64,000 nucleotides of DNA. Source: Squalus acanthias (Eukaryota). The notes below the pieces were generated by a model that saw nothing but the letters and a program-made list of their open reading frames with translations, had not been told where the DNA came from and made no database searches. Numbering within the stretch: the first letter of the stretch is position 1; each line of letters opens with the position of its first letter. This document shows, in pieces, positions 1 through 10,380 of the stretch. Position numbers and translations under genes: made by a program. The stretch lies in NCBI GenBank assembly GCA_030390025.1, contig CM059431.1:126978001-127042000 (forward strand), given 5' to 3'.

Positions 1-539
1 GATCTCCTGACCAACACGTGGGTGCTGCGGTGAAAAACATCCGATCAGCTATTCGGGATTTCTCCGAGTTATTACGAGTGGTGAGCATGAGTCTCGGGAT
101 CCTACGAAGCTAGTTTTAGGATAGTTATTGATAGGGGAGGGTTTAAAGTTTAAGGATATTTGTAATGTGTGCCCTATTTACGTTGTGCTGGTCGTTCCTC
201 GTTTCCCTAAGAGTGATTATAACTGTTTGTAAGATTGTACTGTCATTAATCTGTGCATATGACATGTATTTCATAATTTTAAGTATCATGCAATAAAGAT
301 TTTCCATTTCGTACCGTTCAAACCAAGTCTACATGAGTTTTATCTCCATTACTGCTCTCGCATCTAAGTCCAGTGTCTAGAACCGTAAGGGAGAGTGATT
401 CGAACCACTCACAGGGGTGTCTAGTGTTCCCAGACTGGCTGGAGACCAGGCCTAGACCCGCACTGACATACAGGCTGCACAGAGCCGCGTGAATCTCACA
501 GGCTACGAGACACGCAGGGTCAGGAGAGTATCCCTTACA
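1..539 (+). repeat. 5' LTR (3' part only)
   Basis: Identical by eye to 7671-8209; ends ...CCCTTACA; AATAAA at 292-297. Confidence 0.95.
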
Positions 540-543
540 GAAA

Positions 544-2355
544 ATGGCGACCGCGGCAGGACACTGGCAGCGAGAGGGTAGTGTGTTAGATTTTGGAATG
601 ACTGTACGAAATGTGATGCAGGAAAAGATAGCGGATTACGTATTTGGAAAGGTTAATCTAACGAAAAAGTGGATAAGCGAATTGTTAGCGGATAAGAGCC
701 CACTAGAGGCAGCTGAAAGGTGGACGGATAGTAAGGAGCATAAAAAAGCAGTTGAGAAAGCAGTCTGGCTTATGTGCTACAAAAGGCAGGTTCAGATTTC
801 AAACCAGACCAATACAGCGCTAACCGCTCGAATCAAGCAGTTAGAGGAGGAAATGGAGGAGAAGGTTTCTGGAGGGGAGGCGCTCATTAAGAGTTTAAAT
901 GAGTTACGCCAGGAAAGCCAGGAAGTCTCCAGTTACCTTAAAACAAGGGTAGAGTATCTCGAGTGCCAGATCACTGAAGCAAAATTAAACGAGAGTAGGA
1001 TGAAGGAAAGATGTAACCGTCAAGCTGCCCAGATAAGAACTCAAGAAGAGAGCTTAATGGGGGTTAGGTCGGCGTATAAGTTGGCCCTTGAGGATAAGTT
1101 TCAGGGAGCCGACCATAGCGCCTGCGAAAAAGAGATAGAGAGCCTCAAAAAGGCCGTGAATAATGCGAACGGCATGGTGTGCCTTATTAATCCGTCGGCA
1201 CGCCAGCCGCTAGTAAATGAGAGATTTAGAAATTCCCCACCAAGTAAAGCAGAAGAAGTAGTAGCCAGTGCGCCCTCCGCGCCACCCAGCTATTCAGAAA
1301 CCTGGGTTAGGGAGGAAGCAACGGAAGAAGCAAAAGAGCCCGTTGAAAAGGAGGTAGAAAAGGGATCGTTGTATCCAGTAACGGGGATTAAAAGGGGCCC
1401 AAGCAGAAACGGTGGGGAAGAACCGGGGGATCTCCTCGGACAGCTGGTGTTGCCTCACAGTTCACATCAGCTGAGGGCCATGATAAACCACGTAAGGAAG
1501 CTGACCGAGATAGACGACCCTTCCGTACATTTTAGGGAAGTTGAGCAAGCCGCAGCCATCAACGGCTGCGATGATGGGGAGACAGCAAAAATGCTGCTGT
1601 TCTCTTTAGATAGCTCGGTCCTTCAGTGTCTCTCAGGCGATAGCAAGAGGGGTAATAAAAGTTATGAGGAATTGAAAAATGAGGTCCTAGAAGTAGTGGG
1701 AGCGAACGACGGAGGTCCGTTTGCTAGAGTGGGACAGACAGTGCAGATGGAGGGAGAACCCCCGAAGGTTTTTGCCGACAGGCTGTGGCCAGTATATGAG
1801 CGCAGCTGTCTAGGTGCGCCCGAGCGCGAAGATGTGGAAGGCGCCGCTTTAATTCATTGGCTTAGGTGCATAATAGCCAACAGTTTACCAGCCGTTAGAG
1901 AGCAGGCAAAAGCCTGGTTCGATCCCAATGACCTCAACCTTACGGAAGAGTCGGTCTTGAATCGACTCACGTTAGGTTACCGTAACATAAGGGGTATGGC
2001 AACACGTCCCTTTAAGGGAAGAGTACATGAGGTACGACCCGCAGCCCCGACTCAAAGAGAGTGGCATCAGGAGGGTAATCGCGCCCCACAGGCAAGTAAT
2101 GCCTGTTACGGGTGTGGGAAGACAGGGCACTGGCGCAAGCACTGCAGGAACCCTTGGAAGGATTCCAAGGATAAAAATCCCGCGGTCCGAACCCAGGCGC
2201 CTGTCCCGGCTAAGGAAGCAAAGGCACCCACCTCTCCCGAAGACCTCGAGGCAGTGTTAGGAGTCATGCGCAAGATGGTTTTGAATGCGCGTGGACAGGT
2301 GGCGGTCGCAACCGGCCCCGTAGGTGCCGCAGGACCGTCTAATAGTGCCCCATGA
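544..2355 (+). CDS. gag: Gag polyprotein, 603 aa (alternative start ATG at 598)
   Basis: Intact ORF with a long N-terminal coiled coil, PSAPPSY late motif (1273-1293), capsid-like region (DDPSVHFREVEQAA..., MHR-like QMEGEPPKVFADRL) and a single CCHC knuckle CYGCGKTGHWRKHC (2104-2145). Confidence 0.92.
   Translation: MATAAGHWQREGSVLDFGMTVRNVMQEKIADYVFGKVNLTKKWISELLADKSPLEAAERWTDSKEHKKAVEKAVWLMCYKRQVQISNQTNTALTARIKQLEEEMEEKVSGGEALIKSLNELRQESQEVSSYLKTRVEYLECQITEAKLNESRMKERCNRQAAQIRTQEESLMGVRSAYKLALEDKFQGADHSACEKEIESLKKAVNNANGMVCLINPSARQPLVNERFRNSPPSKAEEVVASAPSAPPSYSETWVREEATEEAKEPVEKEVEKGSLYPVTGIKRGPSRNGGEEPGDLLGQLVLPHSSHQLRAMINHVRKLTEIDDPSVHFREVEQAAAINGCDDGETAKMLLFSLDSSVLQCLSGDSKRGNKSYEELKNEVLEVVGANDGGPFARVGQTVQMEGEPPKVFADRLWPVYERSCLGAPEREDVEGAALIHWLRCIIANSLPAVREQAKAWFDPNDLNLTEESVLNRLTLGYRNIRGMATRPFKGRVHEVRPAAPTQREWHQEGNRAPQASNACYGCGKTGHWRKHCRNPWKDSKDKNPAVRTQAPVPAKEAKAPTSPEDLEAVLGVMRKMVLNARGQVAVATGPVGAAGPSNSAP
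545..562 (+). promoter_or_regulatory. Primer binding site for tRNA-Arg(UCG)
   Basis: TGGCGACCGCGGCAGGAC, 5 nt after the LTR end, is the reverse complement of GTCCTGCCGCGGTCG+CCA, the 3' end of vertebrate tRNA-Arg-TCG as recalled (not database-checked). Confidence 0.85.
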
Positions 2356-2359
2356 CTAG
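2353..2359 (+). promoter_or_regulatory. Putative stop-codon readthrough signal UGA-CUAG
   Basis: The gag stop reads TGA CTA G, and the downstream frame stays open in phase to 3516. Confidence 0.7.
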
Positions 2360-3516
2360 AGCCCACGCAGCCTGCCTACCTGTGTCCTTTTAAAAGACAC
2401 GCACAGGAGGGGGTCTGCGGTGAGGAGGCCAGGTTAAAAGAGCAGGCCTTGCGGGAGGAGAACACCCGCTTAATAGGGAGAATAGATGGGCTGGAAGGGC
2501 AGCTTAGAGAGCAGACCCTACGGGAGGAGAACGCCCGATCAATGGGAAAGTTAGACGTGCTCAGGCTAGAAGAGCAGCTTAGAGAGATAAAAGCAGCCTA
2601 CAGGGTAGCCAAAAGCAGGGAGTATGAGTATTTAAAACAGGATAGAAATCTGCAGCCTCCAGCAGGTGAGATTTCACAGAAACAAGCAGGGGCGGTGGCC
2701 TGTCTTAAGGGAGGGGCCAGACCTGCGAGTGGGGAAGCACAGCCCCAGGTAGGACCACAAGGCACACAGGCAGGCGTAGCAGCTTGCATCAGGGGAAGGG
2801 ACATCCCGGACGATCATGCAGCGTTTTTCTGGAGTTGGGGGTTAGATGACGAGGACCCCAGGGTACCCTGGTCAGATGAGGATAGTGCAGATGAGCATAG
2901 TGATGATGACGGGTGGTTTCAGAGGAACGGTCTGGAAGGATTGGGGCCGCTAGGTAGAGATCCATACGGGGTGGACACACAAGCTGCAGGTCCCGACAGC
3001 AGGAGGAAGGAGCTAGAGGAGGCCGGGCCAGCCGCTATGTGGTTCCCAGAGGTGTGGCCGCCCGCTTTGAACGTCCAGTCCTCAGGGGAGGCAGAGTTCA
3101 CGAGTGAAGGGCCGCCTGCTGGGCCGAGCAGGGCGGGGCCCCGAACTACCAGCCCCGAGGTTAGGGAGGCGGAGTCAGCGGAGGCGGGGCTGGCGCCTGT
3201 GATGGAACCCCAGGTCATCCCGTTGAAGGTCTCGGGACCCGGTCCGTCCGTCACGGAGCCCCCGCCCATAGCAATTCCCCGTAGGTCAAGCAGAGTACCC
3301 CAGCCCAGGAAGATGTGGTCAGGTCCACAGGCTGCCCCAGGGCGTAAGTTTCAGGTTAAGATAACCCGGGTAGAGACAGGCCACATCGAAGCAGTAACAG
3401 GCTGCGGCAGATCAGAGGCAAGGGTCAGCGCAGCAACAGGCTGCGGCAGATCAGAGGGAAGGGTCAGTGCCCTCCCACCGTCGGGAAGAGCTCGCAGCAG
3501 CCTTCTCAGGATTTAA
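2356..3516 (+). CDS. orfX: 386-codon non-enzymatic ORF in the pol position, in frame with gag (predicted 990-aa Gag-X readthrough product)
   Basis: No stop from 2356 to TAA 3514-3516, and no ATG before 2541 (the track's start at 2449 is TTG). Coiled-coil N-part, acidic/Trp patch, Pro-rich low-complexity C-part; no PR/RT/IN motifs. Confidence 0.7.
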   Translation, partial: LEPTQPAYLCPFKRHAQEGVCGEEARLKEQALREENTRLIGRIDGLEGQLREQTLREENARSMGKLDVLRLEEQLREIKAAYRVAKSREYEYLKQDRNLQPPAGEISQKQAGAVACLKGGARPASGEAQPQVGPQGTQAGVAACIRGRDIPDDHAAFFWSWGLDDEDPRVPWSDEDSADEHSDDDGWFQRNGLEGLGPLGRDPYGVDTQAAGPDSRRKELEEAGPAAMWFPEVWPPALNVQSSGEAEFTSEGPPAGPSRAGPRTTSPEVREAESAEAGLAPVMEPQVIPLKVSGPGPSVTEPPPIAIPRRSSRVPQPRKMWSGPQAAPGRKFQVKITRVETGHIEAVTGCGRSEARVSAATGCGRSEGRVSALPPSGRARSSLLRI

Positions 3517-3767
3517 AGGGGCCGCCCTGAGAACGGGCGGCATTGTAAAGTTATTAGTTTAAGGTTTTAAGTTTTAGTTTAAAGTTTTAAGTGGTTTTAA
3601 TAAGGTTAAGTTTGTAGTGTTTGTAACAGAAAACGATAAAATGATGGGAGTTTTAAGGCTAGGTTTAGAGGAAGTCTATTTAGCAAACGTTGAAGTTTAC
3701 GTGAGGCGAGGTCAGGGGACCCGCTCACCCTTCACAAAAGCCAGAGACTTTTTGCGAGGCTGGCTAC

Positions 3768-3787
3768 CTCATTCTATCTGATCACAG
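3768..3787 (+). promoter_or_regulatory. Candidate env splice acceptor
   Basis: Pyrimidine-rich CTCATTCTATCTGATCACAG ends 13 nt before the env ATG at 3801. Confidence 0.5.
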
Positions 3788-3800
3788 GAACCAAGGAAGG

Positions 3801-6152
3801 ATGGAACGACTCATAGTATTGCTCGCGGCAATCGGATGTGGATTGGCCTATCGGGGCCTCACCAAGGATGTCGTGGTGTTTGGATGTTCCGGGGACACGG
3901 CCCCCATCGCGGTGGATGGGACCGGGAGACGGAAGGCAGAAGGGACCAGCACCTATTTCCACAAGGGAAGGTGGCCAGGATGGCTGGGAACGAACTCAAC
4001 GGAGTATTCCAGCACATCGGGGTTCGCCTACAAAGAGACTTCTTTAATGTGCCCCAAAGTACGGATCATCGCACCCAGGATCAGCGTCACCGTCGGCAAA
4101 CGGATTTGTTTGACCTGCAGTGGGAATGTCCCATTGAGCCGATGGTGGTGGCTGCGAAAGCTGAGCAAAACTATGAGGAACTCTTCGGTTGAGTGGGAGC
4201 GACTGGGTAATAATACCCATCGGACAATTACGGGGACAAACGGACAAGTGAAAGTCTGTTGGGACAAATGGTGGGAACCGGATGAGGGGATTTATGTTTG
4301 TATGTGGGGGTCAAAGTACGTTTGCCCCAAAGGCATCTCCATATTCTTTATTAACCAGTGGCAGGATAACGGACAGGGGATGAGGTGGGATGCGAGCACC
4401 AGGGGGTGCGGAGCCCCATACTCTCCGATCCCAGTAAATGCCACTGAGCTCATTACGCGCCCACGCAAAGCCCCGCCCACGATTCCGGTGGTTGTAACTG
4501 AGGAAGAAGGGTGCCCTAAAACTAGTAAGGGACCCGGGAACGGTTTGGTACTGGTCCCCACAGACCAGATACTATTTCAGGGAGTGCATTACGCGGTGGC
4601 CTCGGTGATTTTAAATCTCACTGAGGTACGGTTACCAGAGTGGTGCCCCAAAAAGACGGAACAGTTGTACCAGGTCCTGTTGACCAAGATGTTCAGGCAA
4701 TTTTACGAGTTTGATTTTGCAGAAATTGATAAGACAAGTTTGTACACCGCACCGCAGGAAGTTTTGGACCAAGTAGGGAGGCAAAGAAGGGGTTTGGTGA
4801 ACGATGCGTTCACTGCTTTTAACACAGGGACATCTGTGGTCAACGCTCTAGACAGTGTGGAGCTGCAGACCCAGATTAATGGTTTAAAAACACAGTTAAA
4901 GGATATTCTCACAGATGAGAATAAAGTGGTAGGGTCGGGTCTGCACGAGGACCAAGCCATGACACTACACTTAAAGGAAATCATAGCAGAGCTGGAGAAA
5001 CATGCGCGTACGGTAAATGCCCTGATTAGGGAAGATCGGAATGCATCCGATCAGGCTGCGCAGAACGAGGTGTGCGTGCTTTACGGGGCGTGGTTACTGG
5101 GCGAGGGCCGCAGTAATTTGGAGGATTTAAAACAAGGTTTGGTCCCGTCCTGGATAAGTAACAAACACCTGCGGGCGCTCCACCCTTTTCAGAACGCATT
5201 AAGTCCGTGCCAGCTCAGGCTAGCTTCAGAAGCTTACCCAGTCCCCGTGGACTGCGGACGTTCAAACCATACTATTATGGGAATAGTATTACGCATGCCG
5301 GTTTTGGGCAACACAGCAAAGCCCGCCCCGGTGTATCGGGTAGAGAACATTGGTGTCATTCAGGGGGGAGCCCACATTCGTTATGCAGCGGTTCCACCTT
5401 ACGTCATCCGCTGGGAGCAAACGATGACAGGTACAGATCTCTCTGGTTGTCGTGGCAGGGGAGCACACATAATACTGTGCCCCCAGCACTTGAATGCCTT
5501 TTTAACACCACAGTGCGGGTTCAGAACGGCTGGCGCCAAGTCCATGAATTGCACCATGGAGGCAATGGCACAAGATCATGTGCCTCCGCAGGTAGCATAC
5601 ATCGGGGGTGGAACATACTGTGTTACCACTGCAGCGCAACACCACCAGCATGGAAACCGTAGCCGGTGTCCGGTGAGTGACAGCAGTTTCTGTTTTAAAC
5701 CCAGGGCTGAAGTTCAAGTAGCACAACAGCGAATTATCCCAATCCCTGAACCATCCACTGTTCATCTCACAGTAAAAGAGAATTTTACCGACTTGCAGCG
5801 ATTTGTCGCACATTTTGGGTACCTCATTCCCCCTCTCCCTGAGCATTTAACCAAACTTCTGAAAGCCGTCGCGGTGTCACAAAAGCATTTTTATACATTA
5901 GAACAGAAAACCGTCGAGATAGGTACAGACATTTTGGACATAGTGGTTCCACCGTGGTGGAATCTGTTCACGAATATTGAAGTGCCCTCATGGGTCAGAA
6001 TAGCCTCCCACATTTTAGTCGTCTGTCAAGTGTTTATTGTAGTATACCTATTGTTCATACATTGTAAAAGAGACAAACGCCTCACCAAGCATGAGAACAC
6101 GGGAGAGTGGCGAGAACGTTACGTGCGCGTGCACGATGAGAGCGCAGTGTAA
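3801..6152 (+). CDS. env: Env-like class I fusion glycoprotein, 783 aa, with N-terminal Ig-like domain (F-protein-like layout)
   Basis: Signal peptide MERLIVLLAAIGCGLA; Ig motif C106...W...DEGIYVC167; furin site RQRR (aa 327-330) then fusion-peptide-like GLVNDAFTAFNTGTSVVNAL and a heptad repeat; Cys-rich ectodomain with N-glycan sequons; TM IASHILVVCQVFIVVYLLFIHC; short tail. Confidence 0.88.
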   Translation: MERLIVLLAAIGCGLAYRGLTKDVVVFGCSGDTAPIAVDGTGRRKAEGTSTYFHKGRWPGWLGTNSTEYSSTSGFAYKETSLMCPKVRIIAPRISVTVGKRICLTCSGNVPLSRWWWLRKLSKTMRNSSVEWERLGNNTHRTITGTNGQVKVCWDKWWEPDEGIYVCMWGSKYVCPKGISIFFINQWQDNGQGMRWDASTRGCGAPYSPIPVNATELITRPRKAPPTIPVVVTEEEGCPKTSKGPGNGLVLVPTDQILFQGVHYAVASVILNLTEVRLPEWCPKKTEQLYQVLLTKMFRQFYEFDFAEIDKTSLYTAPQEVLDQVGRQRRGLVNDAFTAFNTGTSVVNALDSVELQTQINGLKTQLKDILTDENKVVGSGLHEDQAMTLHLKEIIAELEKHARTVNALIREDRNASDQAAQNEVCVLYGAWLLGEGRSNLEDLKQGLVPSWISNKHLRALHPFQNALSPCQLRLASEAYPVPVDCGRSNHTIMGIVLRMPVLGNTAKPAPVYRVENIGVIQGGAHIRYAAVPPYVIRWEQTMTGTDLSGCRGRGAHIILCPQHLNAFLTPQCGFRTAGAKSMNCTMEAMAQDHVPPQVAYIGGGTYCVTTAAQHHQHGNRSRCPVSDSSFCFKPRAEVQVAQQRIIPIPEPSTVHLTVKENFTDLQRFVAHFGYLIPPLPEHLTKLLKAVAVSQKHFYTLEQKTVEIGTDILDIVVPPWWNLFTNIEVPSWVRIASHILVVCQVFIVVYLLFIHCKRDKRLTKHENTGEWRERYVRVHDESAV

Positions 6153-6563
6153 TGGGAAAATGGCGTCACTCCCGCTCGCCACGTGCGCCGCGGAAGTTTG
6201 TACTCATTGTAAATACGTTGGAAACTCGATATGTTTAAGAGTCGGGATTTGTTTATTTTGGTGATGGTGTTGATTGTTTGGTTTTTGGGTTTTGTTTTTC
6301 CTTCCCTTGAATAAAAGACAAATATACAGGTGATGCGTGAGGTATCGGCCTGGTTACGCCGGGAAGGAAAACAAGTGGTGTAAGTTTAAGGGCAAATGAT
6401 GCCTACGGTGATATAAAATGTTATTTTCTTGGGAAATAAGGACGACACAGAGACCTAGTGAAGTTAAAATTTTATGGGATTAATTTACTGGATTCGGAGT
6501 GAAATCGAGATAAGATTGCTCACCACTGAGATTTTTGATACGATAAGCGGAGTTATTCGCATC

Positions 6564-6575
6564 AACAGGAGGGAC
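6564..6575 (+). promoter_or_regulatory. Polypurine tract
   Basis: AACAGGAGGGAC immediately precedes the TG start of the 3' LTR. Confidence 0.7.
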
Positions 6576-7141
6576 TGTAGAATTCGCAATTATCGCGATT
6601 TCATTTTTTAATAAGGAGAAAACACAAAGTTTCGTTCAAAACAGCTTTTATTTCAGCGAAATGCTGTCAGGTTTAAATTGGACACAAGCAGCCGGTAAAA
6701 TGGCCGCCGCACCGCGTGACAGAACATTCTAGACTTTTCAGCAGGCAGACAAGATGGCGTTCCAATAAACATTCTTGCAGGATCGATAACGATTCAGCAC
6801 AGTGAAGACAATACACAGGACATTATGGGTTTACAGTATAAACATCGATACTGGAATCGGTCTCCCAGGTACAAAGGAAAGCCATCAAGGGCCCATCCAA
6901 AGGACATTAATATGTAAACTCCCAACGGCTCTACAATGAGAGAGCCGTTAGCAGGTAGTTATACAGGACACTTGGAAGCCCCAAACCCCTCCAGGGGGAA
7001 CACCGACCGATTTAACAATGGGAGAAATATTAACAGGTACTCAAACATTCAGGAGTAGCCCCGAAACCCATTAAGGACAGAGATCACCCATACAGGACTT
7101 TTGGGCGCCAAACCTTAAACAAAAGAATGGACATTGTAGTT

Positions 7142-7173
7142 GGGCGGGAAACGGAAGAACTGTGCACTATAAT
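7142..7173 (+). promoter_or_regulatory. Candidate LTR core promoter (GC box + TATA-like)
   Basis: GGGCGG at 7142-7147 and TATAAT at 7168-7173; CTATAA is kept at the same position in both solo LTRs. Confidence 0.5.
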
Positions 7174-7365
7174 TGCAGGCCCAAACCGTCCATTCGCTCT
7201 CTGGCCTCTTGCTCTTTTGCTCTTGACTCTTGTCGCTTGCTGCTGTTATCATCGTGGCTGCTCCTGTGTTTTATCCGGTCGATTCGTAACCTCGTGGCTG
7301 CTCCTGGGTAAAAGACTGTTGCAAAGACCTATGTTGGTAGCTGGCAGCGGAACCGAAGGCCCGGG

Positions 7366-7395
7366 ATGAGATGAGATGAGATGAGATGAGATGAG
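7366..7395 (+). repeat. (ATGAG)6 microsatellite inside the LTR
   Basis: Seen directly; shorter related runs occur at the same place in both solo LTRs. Confidence 0.9.
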
Positions 7396-7961
7396 AGGAG
7401 AAGAGAAGAAGACCTTATCCATCGCCACGGTCAGTAAATCCCGACCGCGCCTGTAGGTCGATCAGCCAAGTCTTCTCGACAGGAAGTTTTCTTCTTTAAC
7501 AAGACATATTGCATCAATGATAACTGGACTGTGCAAACACATCGTATCAGTGATATTGGCAACGGTGCTCCACGATTTAACTTTGAAGCCCACCAACAGA
7601 GGTCTTCACTACAGCGGACGGTCCAGCCGACTGACCGAGCAGCAGAAGCAGTAAACAAGTGGGACCAGGAGATCTCCTGACCAACACGTGGGTGCTGCGG
7701 TGAAAAACATCCGATCAGCTATTCGGGATTTCTCCGAGTTATTACGAGTGGTGAGCATGAGTCTCGGGATCCTACGAAGCTAGTTTTAGGATAGTTATTG
7801 ATAGGGGAGGGTTTAAAGTTTAAGGATATTTGTAATGTGTGCCCTATTTACGTTGTGCTGGTCGTTCCTCGTTTCCCTAAGAGTGATTATAACTGTTTGT
7901 AAGATTGTACTGTCATTAATCTGTGCATATGACATGTATTTCATAATTTTAAGTATCATGC

Positions 7962-7967
7962 AATAAA
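7962..7967 (+). terminator. LTR polyadenylation signal
   Basis: AATAAA, conserved (as TTTATT on +) in both minus-strand solo LTRs. Confidence 0.7.
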
Positions 7968-8209
7968 GATTTTCCATTTCGTACCGTTCAAACCAAGTCT
8001 ACATGAGTTTTATCTCCATTACTGCTCTCGCATCTAAGTCCAGTGTCTAGAACCGTAAGGGAGAGTGATTCGAACCACTCACAGGGGTGTCTAGTGTTCC
8101 CAGACTGGCTGGAGACCAGGCCTAGACCCGCACTGACATACAGGCTGCACAGAGCCGCGTGAATCTCACAGGCTACGAGACACGCAGGGTCAGGAGAGTA
8201 TCCCTTACA

Positions 8210-10380
8210 GGGCTACTTCCCCTCCTTTTTCATTCTGCCTGTCTTTTCGGAACGTCAAGTACCCTGGAACATTTAGGGGGGAAAATTGAGTCGCGCCCCC
8301 TTTAGGGCATTAATTTCACTGGGGTGCTACTTCTAGTGCCCCGAAAAAAATTAACGCCCCCGCGGCCGAAATTCATCGGTAGCGCCCCAAGAGGGAAGCG
8401 GAGAGCTACTGGAAGCACCCCGCCTCCCTCTTGGGGCGTGCGCTGCGGCACGTCGCGCTGCGCTACTGCAGGCCTTCCTCCCCTTCTTAAAGGGGAGGGG
8501 ACTTGCGCAGCATGAGCCGGGGCCCAGCTGGGCCACCAGGGATCTGAGTGCCGGCAAAAGAGCCCGGCACTCAAGAGAAGTGCCAGGCTCAGGGAGTGCA
8601 GTCAGCACTCTGCGGGGGGGCTGCTCAGGAGGCCGTGGATGGCAACGGGGGCAGGTGCTGGCAGGCGGCCAGCAACAAAAATGGCCGCCCGGCACCTCGC
8701 CTTTAATTAACGCTGTCCCGGCCGCAGGTAGGCCCCCCTGACCCCGTCGGACATAGTGTCCGGCATTAAGTCAGGGGGCACTACCGAAGATCACTGCCAG
8801 GGTGCAAGTGGGGTGCTGCGCATGGCGATGAAGTCATCGCCGGCGACACAGCGCTGTAGGGCGCTAACGGTTACCGTCTTCGCTAACCTCCCGCTGAATT
8901 TTGCAGGAGGCTTTGGCGGTGCCGCGCCCGGGCGCTAGTTGCTTTGCGCCCCGTTAGTGCCCTAGGGCACTAACGGGAGGTGCAAAACAACCAAATTTTT
9001 CCTCCTTAGTTCCCAACCTTGGCCACTTTGCAACCATGTCTCTGTAATGGCTATTAGATCAAACCCATTTATCTCTATTTGTGCCACTATTTCATCTATC
9101 TTGTTACGAATGCTTCGTGTATTCAGATAAAGAGCCTTTAATTTAAATATTTTACCATTATCCCCTGCTTTGACCTTATTCTCTGCTGCACTGCTACCGT
9201 TAAACTCTCTGTCCCTTCCTGTCACACTCTGCTTATTTTTACCCAAATCGCTACACTGCTCTATTGCCTTGACCTTTTGTCTTTAGATTTCTAAATTTCC
9301 CCCCACCTGACCCCTCCACCCGCCTTTTTTAGTTTAAAGCCCTACCTACAGCCCTAGTTATTCGATTCAACAGGACGCTGGTCCCAGCCCGGTTTAAGTG
9401 GAGACCGTCCCGATGGAACAGCTCCCTCTTTTCCCGGTACTGGTGCCAGTGCCCCATGAATTGAAACCCCATTTTCTCACACCACTCTTTGGGCCCTGCA
9501 TTTAACTCTCTGATCTGCTTGACCCTATGCCAATTTACGTGTGGCTCAGGCAGTAATCCAGAGATTATTATCCTTGTTGTTCTGCTTATTAATTTAGACC
9601 CTAGCTCCTCAAACTCCCTCAGCAGAACCTCATTCTTAGTTCTACCTATGTCGTTGGTTCCTACACGGATCACGACAACTGGATCCTCCCCCTCCCACTC
9701 CAAGTTCTTCTCCAGCTGCGAGGAAATATCCTTAACCCTGGCACCGGGCAGGCAACACAGCCTTCGGGACTCTCTTTCGTGGCTGCAGAGAACAGTATCT
9801 ATCCCCCTGACTATACTGCCCCCTACTGCTACCACATTCCTTCCTTCTCCCCGCACTTGGATGGCCCCCTGTACCACAGTGCCATGGTCAGTTTGCCCAT
9901 CCTCCCTACAGTCCTTTTCCTCATCCATACAGGTAGAAAGTACCTCGTACCTGTTGGACAAGGTCCAGGGCTGAGGCTCATCCATCACTACATCCTGGGT
10001 CCCCATACCTGCCTGACTCGCAGTCGCACCCTCCTGTCCCTGATCACTGACGAACTCTAAAGTACTACTTAACCTAAAGGGTGTGACTGCCTCCTGGAAC
10101 AAAGTGTCCAGGTAACTCTCCCCCTCCCTGATGCATTGCAATGTCTACAGCTCGTACTCCAGCTCAACAATTCTGAGCCGAAGTTCCTCGAGTTGCAGAC
10201 ACTTACTGCAGATGTGGTTGCTCGGGATCGCGATGCGTTCCACAGACTCCCACATGCTGCAGTTATGACACAGCCCTGCCCTGCCATCTCAAACCTTGTT
10301 TTATTTATTAATATATTATTTAAAGATTTTATTCAATCGATATTTTAGGTTTATCGTTTGATTATTTTATTTAGTTTAAG
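8210..10380 (-). mobile_element. CR1 LINE 5' part (ORF1 zinc-finger/SGNH esterase, start of APE endonuclease), interrupted by the provirus and a MITE
   Basis: ORF 9329-10141 has esterase motifs (GGSIVRGID, CLPGARVKD, VGTNDIG, DGLHLN). APE motif YLNTRSIRNK...IAITETWL is in 9009-9246 and continues at 8210-8275. Confidence 0.88.
8276..9005. mobile_element. PIF/Harbinger-type MITE, family A copy 1
   Basis: GG(G/A)GGAAAA(A)TT termini, TTA TSD (8273-8275 / 9006-9008), GC/CpG-rich; inverted copy at 20972-21710. Confidence 0.8.

Follow-up and report, generated by a model that had tools for sequence, protein, structure and literature searches.

What does an endogenous retrovirus keep between gag and env once the enzymes of pol are gone, and is the reading frame in that slot still translated? 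The question is raised by a provirus at the start of a 64,000-nt stretch of the Squalus acanthias genome (GenBank assembly GCA_030390025.1, contig CM059431.1, positions 126,978,001 to 127,042,000 of the forward strand; hereafter the window). Here the gag gene ends in UGA followed by CUAG, and the same frame continues as an open reading frame (ORF) of 386 codons, called orfX, upstream from an env-like ORF. The initial annotation placed a non-enzymatic ORF in the pol slot, still coupled to gag by a leaky stop, and suggested that the outer ends of orfX were retained from an ancestral pol whose catalytic core had been replaced. Our analysis leads to the conclusion, to which we assign a probability of roughly 80%, that orfX is a pol remnant in a pol-deleted, helper-dependent offspring of an endogenous retrovirus (ERV) family that is both very young and very abundant, and that the stop signal was inherited along with it.

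The coordinates and the translation of the gag-orfX junction agree with the arrangement first described: TGA, then CTAG, then 386 open codons. Read from the gag ATG at 544 to the TAA at 3514-3516 with the TGA taken as X, the frame amounts to 603 + 1 + 386 = 990 residues. The statement that no ATG lies nearby is roughly right, the first in-frame ATG being codon 63 (2542-2544). Over the length of orfX there are 22 stop codons in each of the other two forward frames and none in its own, and in 2,000 mononucleotide shuffles the longest open stretch of the three forward frames averaged 111 codons and never exceeded 309, well short of 386. Of 29 sibling copies selected for their likeness to 2200-3600, 28 retain the seven nucleotides TGACTAG (the exception reads TGACGAG), as do 30 of 30 pol-bearing and pol-deleted copies sampled by a 32-mer from gag. 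The two samples overlap by one copy, so the motif is present in 57 of 58 distinct copies, and TGACTAGA is preserved in all 30 gag-sampled copies. UGA-CUAG is an experimentally validated readthrough motif in vertebrate cells, with readthrough of 3.5 to about 31% in human cells (PMC4132726, in excerpt).

The origin of both the signal and the frame is seen from relatives that have kept pol. With up to 3 mismatches allowed, a 32-mer from the gag zinc knuckle matched the 3.7-Gb genome 3,375 times, and its reversed control not once. From these, the first 30 exact matches in genome order were taken as a sample independent of orfX, and 20 of them turned out to be pol-bearing and 10 pol-deleted. In the 20 pol-bearing copies the frame after the stop starts with LEPAQPVYLCPL and goes on into a protease with LLDTGAS and a reverse transcriptase (RT) with YVDD. 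Thus the signal that joins orfX to gag is the one that joins gag to pro-pol in the relatives, which bears out the proposed coupling. The 10 pol-deleted copies all carry orfX, in one case (L051, C1:57383570-57386601) disrupted by an unrelated AT-rich insertion past codon 108. Genome-wide, 32-mers spanning the junctions matched 2,101 times for the pol-bearing and 1,156 times for the pol-deleted form, with no matches for the controls.

The partner with matching ends in the same genome is the pol-bearing locus L062, which is 98.7-99.1% identical to the window on either side of the deletion and has the order gag, TGA, a 1,500-codon Pol and the same env. Its Pol contains the domains RVP (17-111), RVT_1 (245-407), RNase H (650-793), the integrase zinc domain (Integrase_H2C2) and core (rve) at 875-1047 and SH3 (1182-1224), followed by a 276-residue tail (1225-1500) that matches no Pfam family. 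The gag, pol and env frames are all open in three of three long pol-bearing loci. When compared with PDB entries, the pol-bearing RT lies near the RT of murine leukaemia virus (MLV) and xenotropic MLV-related virus (XMRV) (E 4e-70) and about equally near the Ty3 and foamy-virus enzymes, and the closest match of the integrase (IN) is that of foamy virus.

Alignment with L062 placed both breakpoints, as the initial annotation had proposed should be done with pol-bearing relatives, and both junctions are in frame. With blastn, window positions 520-2387 match at 99.1% and 2722-7080 at 98.7%, so that, compared with this closest relative, a stretch of 334 nt occupies the place of 3,676 nt of pol without a change of frame. 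Older subgroups have a 245-nt insert in place of 3,620 nt, and their pol restarts at ...VNQCKLY at the end of the integrase SH3 domain. The stretch lost from pol accordingly runs from codon 12 through the end of SH3, and the length differences at the breakpoints are multiples of 3. orfX therefore consists of 11 pol codons, about 80 foreign codons and the Pol tail. No Pfam domain was found in orfX, in line with a non-enzymatic ORF, and none in the Pol tail. The suggestion that the outer ends are retained pol, and that the catalytic core was lost, is upheld by the alignment; the extent of the 3' part had been underestimated, since it is not merely RRSSRVPQP that is retained but the whole of the last ~264 Pol codons (277 in the older subgroups), with RRSSRVPQP inside them.

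The insert could not be traced to the element itself (E 0.73 against gag, chance words only against the remainder of the pol-bearing element). The whole of orfX found no homologues in a word-index search of a 5.8-billion-protein collection (7,999 candidates scored), nothing at E 0.001 with exhaustive phmmer among 1.84 billion representative proteins, and two queries of the ESM Atlas, with top scores of 0.81 and 0.88, pointed to no family. Zero matches were obtained for the Pol tail alone against Pol-length proteins and for gag against longer proteins. A kinship of the insert with Rab11-FIP3 was considered and rejected as a matter of coiled-coil composition, the Pfam match being below threshold and the host exons dissimilar. 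Single-sequence AlphaFold2 places helices at orfX residues 21-60 and 65-97 with a predicted local distance difference test (pLDDT) score of 80-97, and the insert is predicted by this model to form a helical hairpin. Residues 1-19 and the Pol tail are predicted to be disordered, and 271 of the 386 residues score below pLDDT 50. Within the tail, a 13-codon unit TGCGRSE..VSA (window 3376-3471) is repeated 1 to 3 times depending on the lineage (Pol tails of L062-L068). The best-conserved part of the tail comprises the last 14 residues (LPPSGRARSSLLRI) and nucleotides 3420-3539, which may reflect a small motif at the C-terminus or else a signal needed to express env.

In order to judge selection on orfX, the relationship between the two forms has to be considered. 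A gag tree of 30 copies, which leaves out L037 with its badly broken gag, has the shape of a ladder with 17 of 27 inner branches well supported and with terminal branches that are short (median 0.0034), the pattern of a single lineage with rapid turnover that deposited germline copies at each step. Pol-bearing and pol-deleted copies are fully interleaved on it: the type label changes 9 times, at least 7 of these forced by supported branches, compared with a mean of 8.7 for shuffled labels. The tails of the pol-deleted subgroups pair with the tails of different pol-bearing lineages, and all subgroups share the same insert, its few changes tracking the order of the ladder. The common insert and its ladder-ordered changes indicate that the deleted form arose once, early, and has gone on swapping gag and tail-env with the pol-bearing form, which we call the helper. 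As a consequence of this exchange, it may be the helper, and not the deleted form, in which the purifying selection seen on gag and env, and the open tail as well, are brought about. The two mismatches between the long terminal repeats (LTRs) of the window's provirus point to its youth, and it was inserted with a 4-bp duplication.

Several pol-deleted copies stand in head-to-tail arrays, at C6:35140592 and 35148251 and at C1:143657911, 143665634 and 143673352, and C3295 holds five pol-deleted matches spaced 7.6-8.1 kb. The array spacing of about 7.67 kb equals one LTR plus the internal part, indicating that some of the copy number stems from tandem amplification or LTR-LTR exchange and not from insertion. 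Contigs from sequence runs under two organism labels span the end of gag into the foreign insert, so the pol-deleted form occurs under more than one organism label.

Across the window and its 29 siblings, gag has a ratio of non-synonymous to synonymous polymorphism (pN/pS) of 0.17 and env one of 0.08, whereas the value reaches 0.96 in orfX, where the variants fall 19/16/14 on the three codon positions. Picking the siblings by orfX likeness lowers orfX diversity but should leave the ratio unbiased, and the analysis was repeated on the gag-sampled copies. Between subgroups of these, the corresponding ratio of substitution rates (dN/dS) is 0.2-0.28 for gag, leaving out L060 with a gag frameshift, and 0.7-1.0 for the tail in most pairs (full range 0.43-1.51); the insert differs by 0-10 non-synonymous and 0-3 synonymous changes, which are too few to tell. 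Two hallmarks of a readthrough site are present, namely UGA directly before CUAG and a downstream frame that stays open in relatives; a coding-conservation signature in the extension is shown only by the enzymatic pol of the helper and not by orfX.

The frame has nevertheless remained open. In nine of nine pol-deleted copies from four subgroups orfX is intact at 373-397 codons (lengths taken from the ORFs, alignment gaps being unusable once pol-bearing rows are included), and the Pol tail is open in six of seven pol-bearing copies from diverged lineages. When the observed substitutions were placed at random (5,000 simulations per pair), the tail stayed open in 3-13% of cases. Such rare openness by chance, together with length differences of whole codons, suggests that the tail frame is probably maintained. 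Frequent disruption or neutral change of orfX in sibling copies with intact gag and env had been named beforehand as refuting the initial interpretation, and the outcome is divided: the frame is not often broken (open in 28 of 29 and 9 of 10 copies), but its evolution is near-neutral (pN/pS 0.96; 0.87 between subgroups). Since the near-neutral rate of the tail is also found in pol-bearing copies, where it certainly is Pol, neutral-looking change is no sign of non-translation. At the same time, the openness of orfX cannot be separated from selection on the pol tail of the helper plus recombination.

A different picture emerges at the level of the RNA. In nine pol-deleted copies spanning the ladder, the 111 nt at 2353-2463 contain one variable site, compared with a median of 20 over 2,887 windows across gag and orfX, and all 30 windows with at most two variable sites begin at 2348-2377. 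Directly after it, still within the insert, 16 sites vary over 177 nt. In pol-bearing copies (n=14) the 111 nt after the stop are unexceptional, with 12 variable sites against a median of 13. The block contains a predicted stem-loop (Table 1) with a minimum free energy of -29.1 kcal/mol over 70 nt (z -1.98, 9 of 200 shuffles equally good) and -47.7 kcal/mol over 120 nt (z -2.2), and the equivalent fold in the pol-bearing copies is unremarkable (z +0.9). The few variants in the stem-loop preserve pairing (CG to UG, AU to GU). Stem-loops a few nucleotides 3' of the stop are known stimulators of readthrough (PMC4132726, in excerpt). We tentatively propose, at somewhat less than even odds, that selection in the deleted form acts on an RNA element within these 111 nt, the simplest candidate being a stem-loop by which readthrough is tuned.

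How would such an element work? The family would make Gag-Pol by readthrough of the UGA, and the deleted form has inherited this signal. As the enzymes require reading through this very stop, the deleted form probably makes some Gag-X, and it is likely that a minority of ribosomes would produce the 990-residue protein. Copies of the deleted form would be made with RT and IN supplied in trans by the helper. One may go further and imagine a parasite module, where the new stem-loop lifts readthrough and a plentiful fusion of Gag, helices and integrase tail enters helper particles; the integrase tail or the helical hairpin of the fusion could then capture helper Pol or steer integration. We regard this extension as improbable, but if true it would represent a vertebrate retroviral hyperparasite that has adapted a recoding signal of its own and, by recombining constantly with its helper, co-evolves with it.

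Several observations weigh against the picture of a selected stem-loop in a helper-driven element. The predicted fold is just moderately better than shuffles (z about -2), there are no compensatory double changes in the stem-loop, where the region is almost invariant, and the constraint tests rest on a small sample (9 copies of the pol-deleted and 14 of the pol-bearing form). That the insert varies so little could in part come from copying of a few slowly evolving master loci whose flanks are refreshed by recombination from the fast-evolving helper; because this model could explain part of the low variability, the claim of constraint rests on the contrast within the insert. The helper may also need sequence beyond +32 nt for readthrough, in which case the deleted form could read through less. 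Mobilisation in trans is deduced from the absence of RT and IN, and draws also on the 1,156 dispersed junction matches, some of them in tandem arrays. Finally, among 14 listed sequence runs with this stretch none is recorded as RNA, all contigs being of unknown or guessed kind.

The evidence presented above can be read in other ways. A view that follows the initial annotation, in which Gag-X is an adapted virion component that brings the helical insert and the integrase tail into particles at Gag-Pol-like stoichiometry and helps the deleted element to compete for or exploit the helper machinery, would account for a frame that no subgroup has lost although its length varies (373-397 codons, 9/9), for a tail whose openness was retained in only 3-13% of simulations, for a stop-free insert in frame at both junctions and for the conserved RNA block and stem-loop at the stop; in addition, the 11 kept pol codons could preserve a protease cleavage site. 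On the other hand, the tail dN/dS of about 0.9 and the insert ratio of non-synonymous to synonymous changes of about 3:1 are as without constraint. The tail is equally open in the recombining pol-bearing copies, so that its openness need not be selected in the deleted form, and the segment that only the deleted form has is so short that it could be open by chance. With no amino-acid-level constraint anywhere in orfX, a selected protein function of Gag-X is unlikely, and a tolerated by-product is the more likely explanation. Slightly less unlikely in our estimate is that the conserved RNA serves packaging, dimerisation, export or stability, favouring the deleted over the helper genome, with Gag-X incidental. 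The constraint is indeed on nucleotides and not on amino acids, it is specific to the deleted form, the block encodes the predicted disordered residues 1-19, and defective RNA-virus genomes often acquire such advantages in cis. What speaks for the readthrough-tuning element instead is that the conserved block begins at the stop codon itself, that the element is matched by no Rfam family, and that the hairpin lies at typical stimulator spacing, the predicted stem-loop of ACP2 being likewise located 6 nt 3' of the stop (PMC4132726, in excerpt).

Two further explanations concern the source of the insert and the way X is made. The insert, an open and coiled-coil-like stretch that is foreign to the element, has a sub-threshold Pfam match to a Rab11-FIP3-like domain (23.5 bits, the cut-off being 31.9), as could be expected if a piece of a host gene had been transduced and orfX were a Gag-host fusion of the kind found in acutely transforming retroviruses. 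We give this little credence: the two best host Rab11-FIP3-like exons (L069, L070) are dissimilar in protein and DNA, the whole of orfX is without a match at E 0.001 among 1.84 billion proteins, and the insert arose partly by internal duplication. Least probable is that X is made separately, through splicing or by initiation at the internal ATG at 2542, even though this ATG, codon 63, is in frame. The strongly conserved part is found 5' of that codon, and the continuity of the frame with gag is inherited from pol. Contigs of four runs show no joint from the 5' leader to orfX or env, which is weak evidence as these are contigs only, and the three joints listed fall inside gag or orfX, are not shared between both studies and are unlike such splices.

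The surrounding provirus has an LTR pair, a primer site, a purine tract and a target duplication, and in this respect corresponds to a non-autonomous ERV (Table 1). The upstream flank aligns with window 6000-8600 over 1,641 nt at 99.8% identity (blastn). Domain matches of gag are weak (zf-CCHC in Pfam, nucleocapsid in PDB). No Pfam match to RT, RNase H or integrase was found in gag, orfX or env, and between the LTRs there is no further ORF of 80 residues or more apart from short overlaps. A tRNA scan of the window gave zero tRNAs, and Rfam searched over 1-8300 gave nothing close to threshold. The gag ATG (544-546) overlaps the 18-mer resembling a primer-binding site (PBS), with zero leader separating the two, which means that any packaging signal must sit in U5 or within gag. 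Residues 80-174 of env have weak immunoglobulin (Ig)-like matches, to Pfam Ig_3 at E 0.45 and in PDB to junction adhesion molecule and antibody light chain at E about 0.8-0.9. The CpG observed/expected ratio is 0.53 in orfX (2356-3513) compared with 0.82 in gag and 0.77 in env. U3 of the LTR contains a short GATGA microsatellite (7367-7392), with an 80-codon ORF (7127-7369) just 5' of it, and just beyond the provirus a fragment of an endonuclease ORF of the long interspersed nuclear element (LINE) type is found on the minus strand (8962-9246).

Table 1 Features of the pol-deleted provirus in the window (positions count from the first letter of the window).
Feature	Position	Strand	Remarks
5' LTR, 3' part	1..539	+	start 1,094 nt upstream of the window; end ...CTTACA
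PBS-like 18-mer, TGG start	545..562	+	5 nt past LTR; read from sequence
gag, 603 codons	544..2352	+	ORF; N-terminal coiled-coil part, one CCHC knuckle at residues 520-535
Leaky-stop motif UGA-CUAG	2353..2359	+	TGA 2353-2355, CTAG 2356-2359
Least variable gag-orfX block, pol-deleted copies	2353..2463	+	1 variable site, 9 copies
orfX, 386 codons	2356..3516	+	same frame as gag; TAA stop 3514-3516
Retained pro-pol start, 11 codons	2356..2387	+	LEPTQPAYLCP here; LEPAQPVYLCP in pol-bearing copies
Predicted RNA stem-loop	2362..2425	+	6 nt past UGA; 3' arm within foreign insert
No counterpart in closest pol-bearing copy, 334 nt	2388..2721	+	blastn against L062
Foreign insert, 245 nt	2388..2632	+	source not matched in element, gag or protein libraries
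Direct repeat, 69 nt (23 codons), two copies	2439..2561	+	54 nt at 76% identity, spacing 69
Diverged pol codons after integrase SH3, 33 nt longer	2633..2721	+	stands for next 56 nt; window's subgroup
Pol tail, last 264 codons + TAA	2722..3516	+	98.7% to L062 from 5545; conserved end LPPSGRARSSLLRI
env-like ORF, 783 codons	3801..6152	+	signal-like N-terminus, RQRR-G cleavage-like site, C-terminal membrane span
Purine-rich tract	6564..6574	+	adjoins 3' LTR; read from sequence
3' LTR, 1,634 nt	6576..8209	+	TGTAG...CTTACA; 2 mismatches to 5' LTR
Target-site duplication GGGC, 4 bp	8210..8213	+	second copy directly before 5' LTR

The element is a defective, helper-dependent ERV, and as such of a known kind, examples being ETn/MusD in the mouse, the deleted I-delta-1 subtype of the intracisternal A particle (IAP) and the pol-deleted EAV-HP of the chicken. 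Like these it is without RT and IN, has reached a high copy number and has an autonomous partner in the same genome whose LTRs, primer site and structural genes correspond to its own, and in such elements an internal deletion can yield a new fusion frame. What is unusual is the combination of whole gag and env genes, an in-frame foreign helical segment, a retained readthrough link and a private conserved RNA block. Thus, compared with elements of the ETn/MusD type, gag and env are whole here and the deletion is filled in frame by the foreign helical segment; the fusion needs a leaky stop, the two forms are interleaved on one gag ladder, and a new RNA block is present at the stop. Acutely transforming retroviruses also have pol replaced by foreign coding sequence fused to the gag frame. 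The shark element differs from them in that no host source was matched, that it is endogenous with more than 1,000 germline copies and that its fusion needs readthrough.

Gamma- and epsilon-retroviruses express Gag-Pol by suppression of an in-frame stop, UAG. As in these viruses, gag and pro-pol of the present family share one frame with a single stop between them, the target duplication is 4 bp and the RT is MLV/XMRV-like; unlike in these viruses, the RT is about equally near those of Ty3 and foamy virus and the IN is closest to that of foamy virus. The gag-pol stop of murine leukaemia virus (MuLV) is followed by a pseudoknot (PMC4132726, in excerpt), and in place of UAG with a pseudoknot our family has UGA with CUAG and no exceptional fold in the pol-bearing copies (z +0.9). 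Programmed readthrough at UGA-CUAG is described for the vertebrate genes OPRL1, OPRK1, AQP4 and MAPK10 and for alphaviruses (PMC4132726, in excerpt). The shark element has the same seven nucleotides and a long in-frame extension, and like ACP2 in the same excerpt a predicted stem-loop 6 nt downstream of the stop. It departs from these genes in that the extension of the deleted form is without amino-acid conservation, and the site is known here from sequence alone.

Some likeness also exists to the lokiretroviruses, which have fish-type hosts, a gag-pol-env organisation and extra coiled-coil coding capacity, in some cases with an smc-like gene (PMC7947760, in excerpt). A fish-type host, extra coiled-coil capacity and an env with a basic cleavage site are shared by our element. 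At E up to 1 its env had no match to PF00523, the paramyxovirus-type fusion glycoprotein F0, and by sequence nothing relevant to F0 in PDB. The excerpted text of PMC7947760 makes no mention of cartilaginous, readthrough or BHIKHARI. Membership is not shown by this comparison, made through env sequence and description, and we do not file the element as a lokiretrovirus.

For the annotation of such loci our results carry a caution, namely that an ORF which looks novel in the position of pol can consist for the most part of the fast-evolving tail of pol itself. For recoding, the family offers two natural versions of UGA-CUAG, with and without a downstream hairpin, as a test of readthrough tuning in vertebrate cells. 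For the biology of the family, about 2,100 full and 1,150 pol-deleted copies with open frames make up a natural pair in which to see how a defective retrovirus keeps pace with its helper, here by recombination in the common parts together with a frozen private RNA block.

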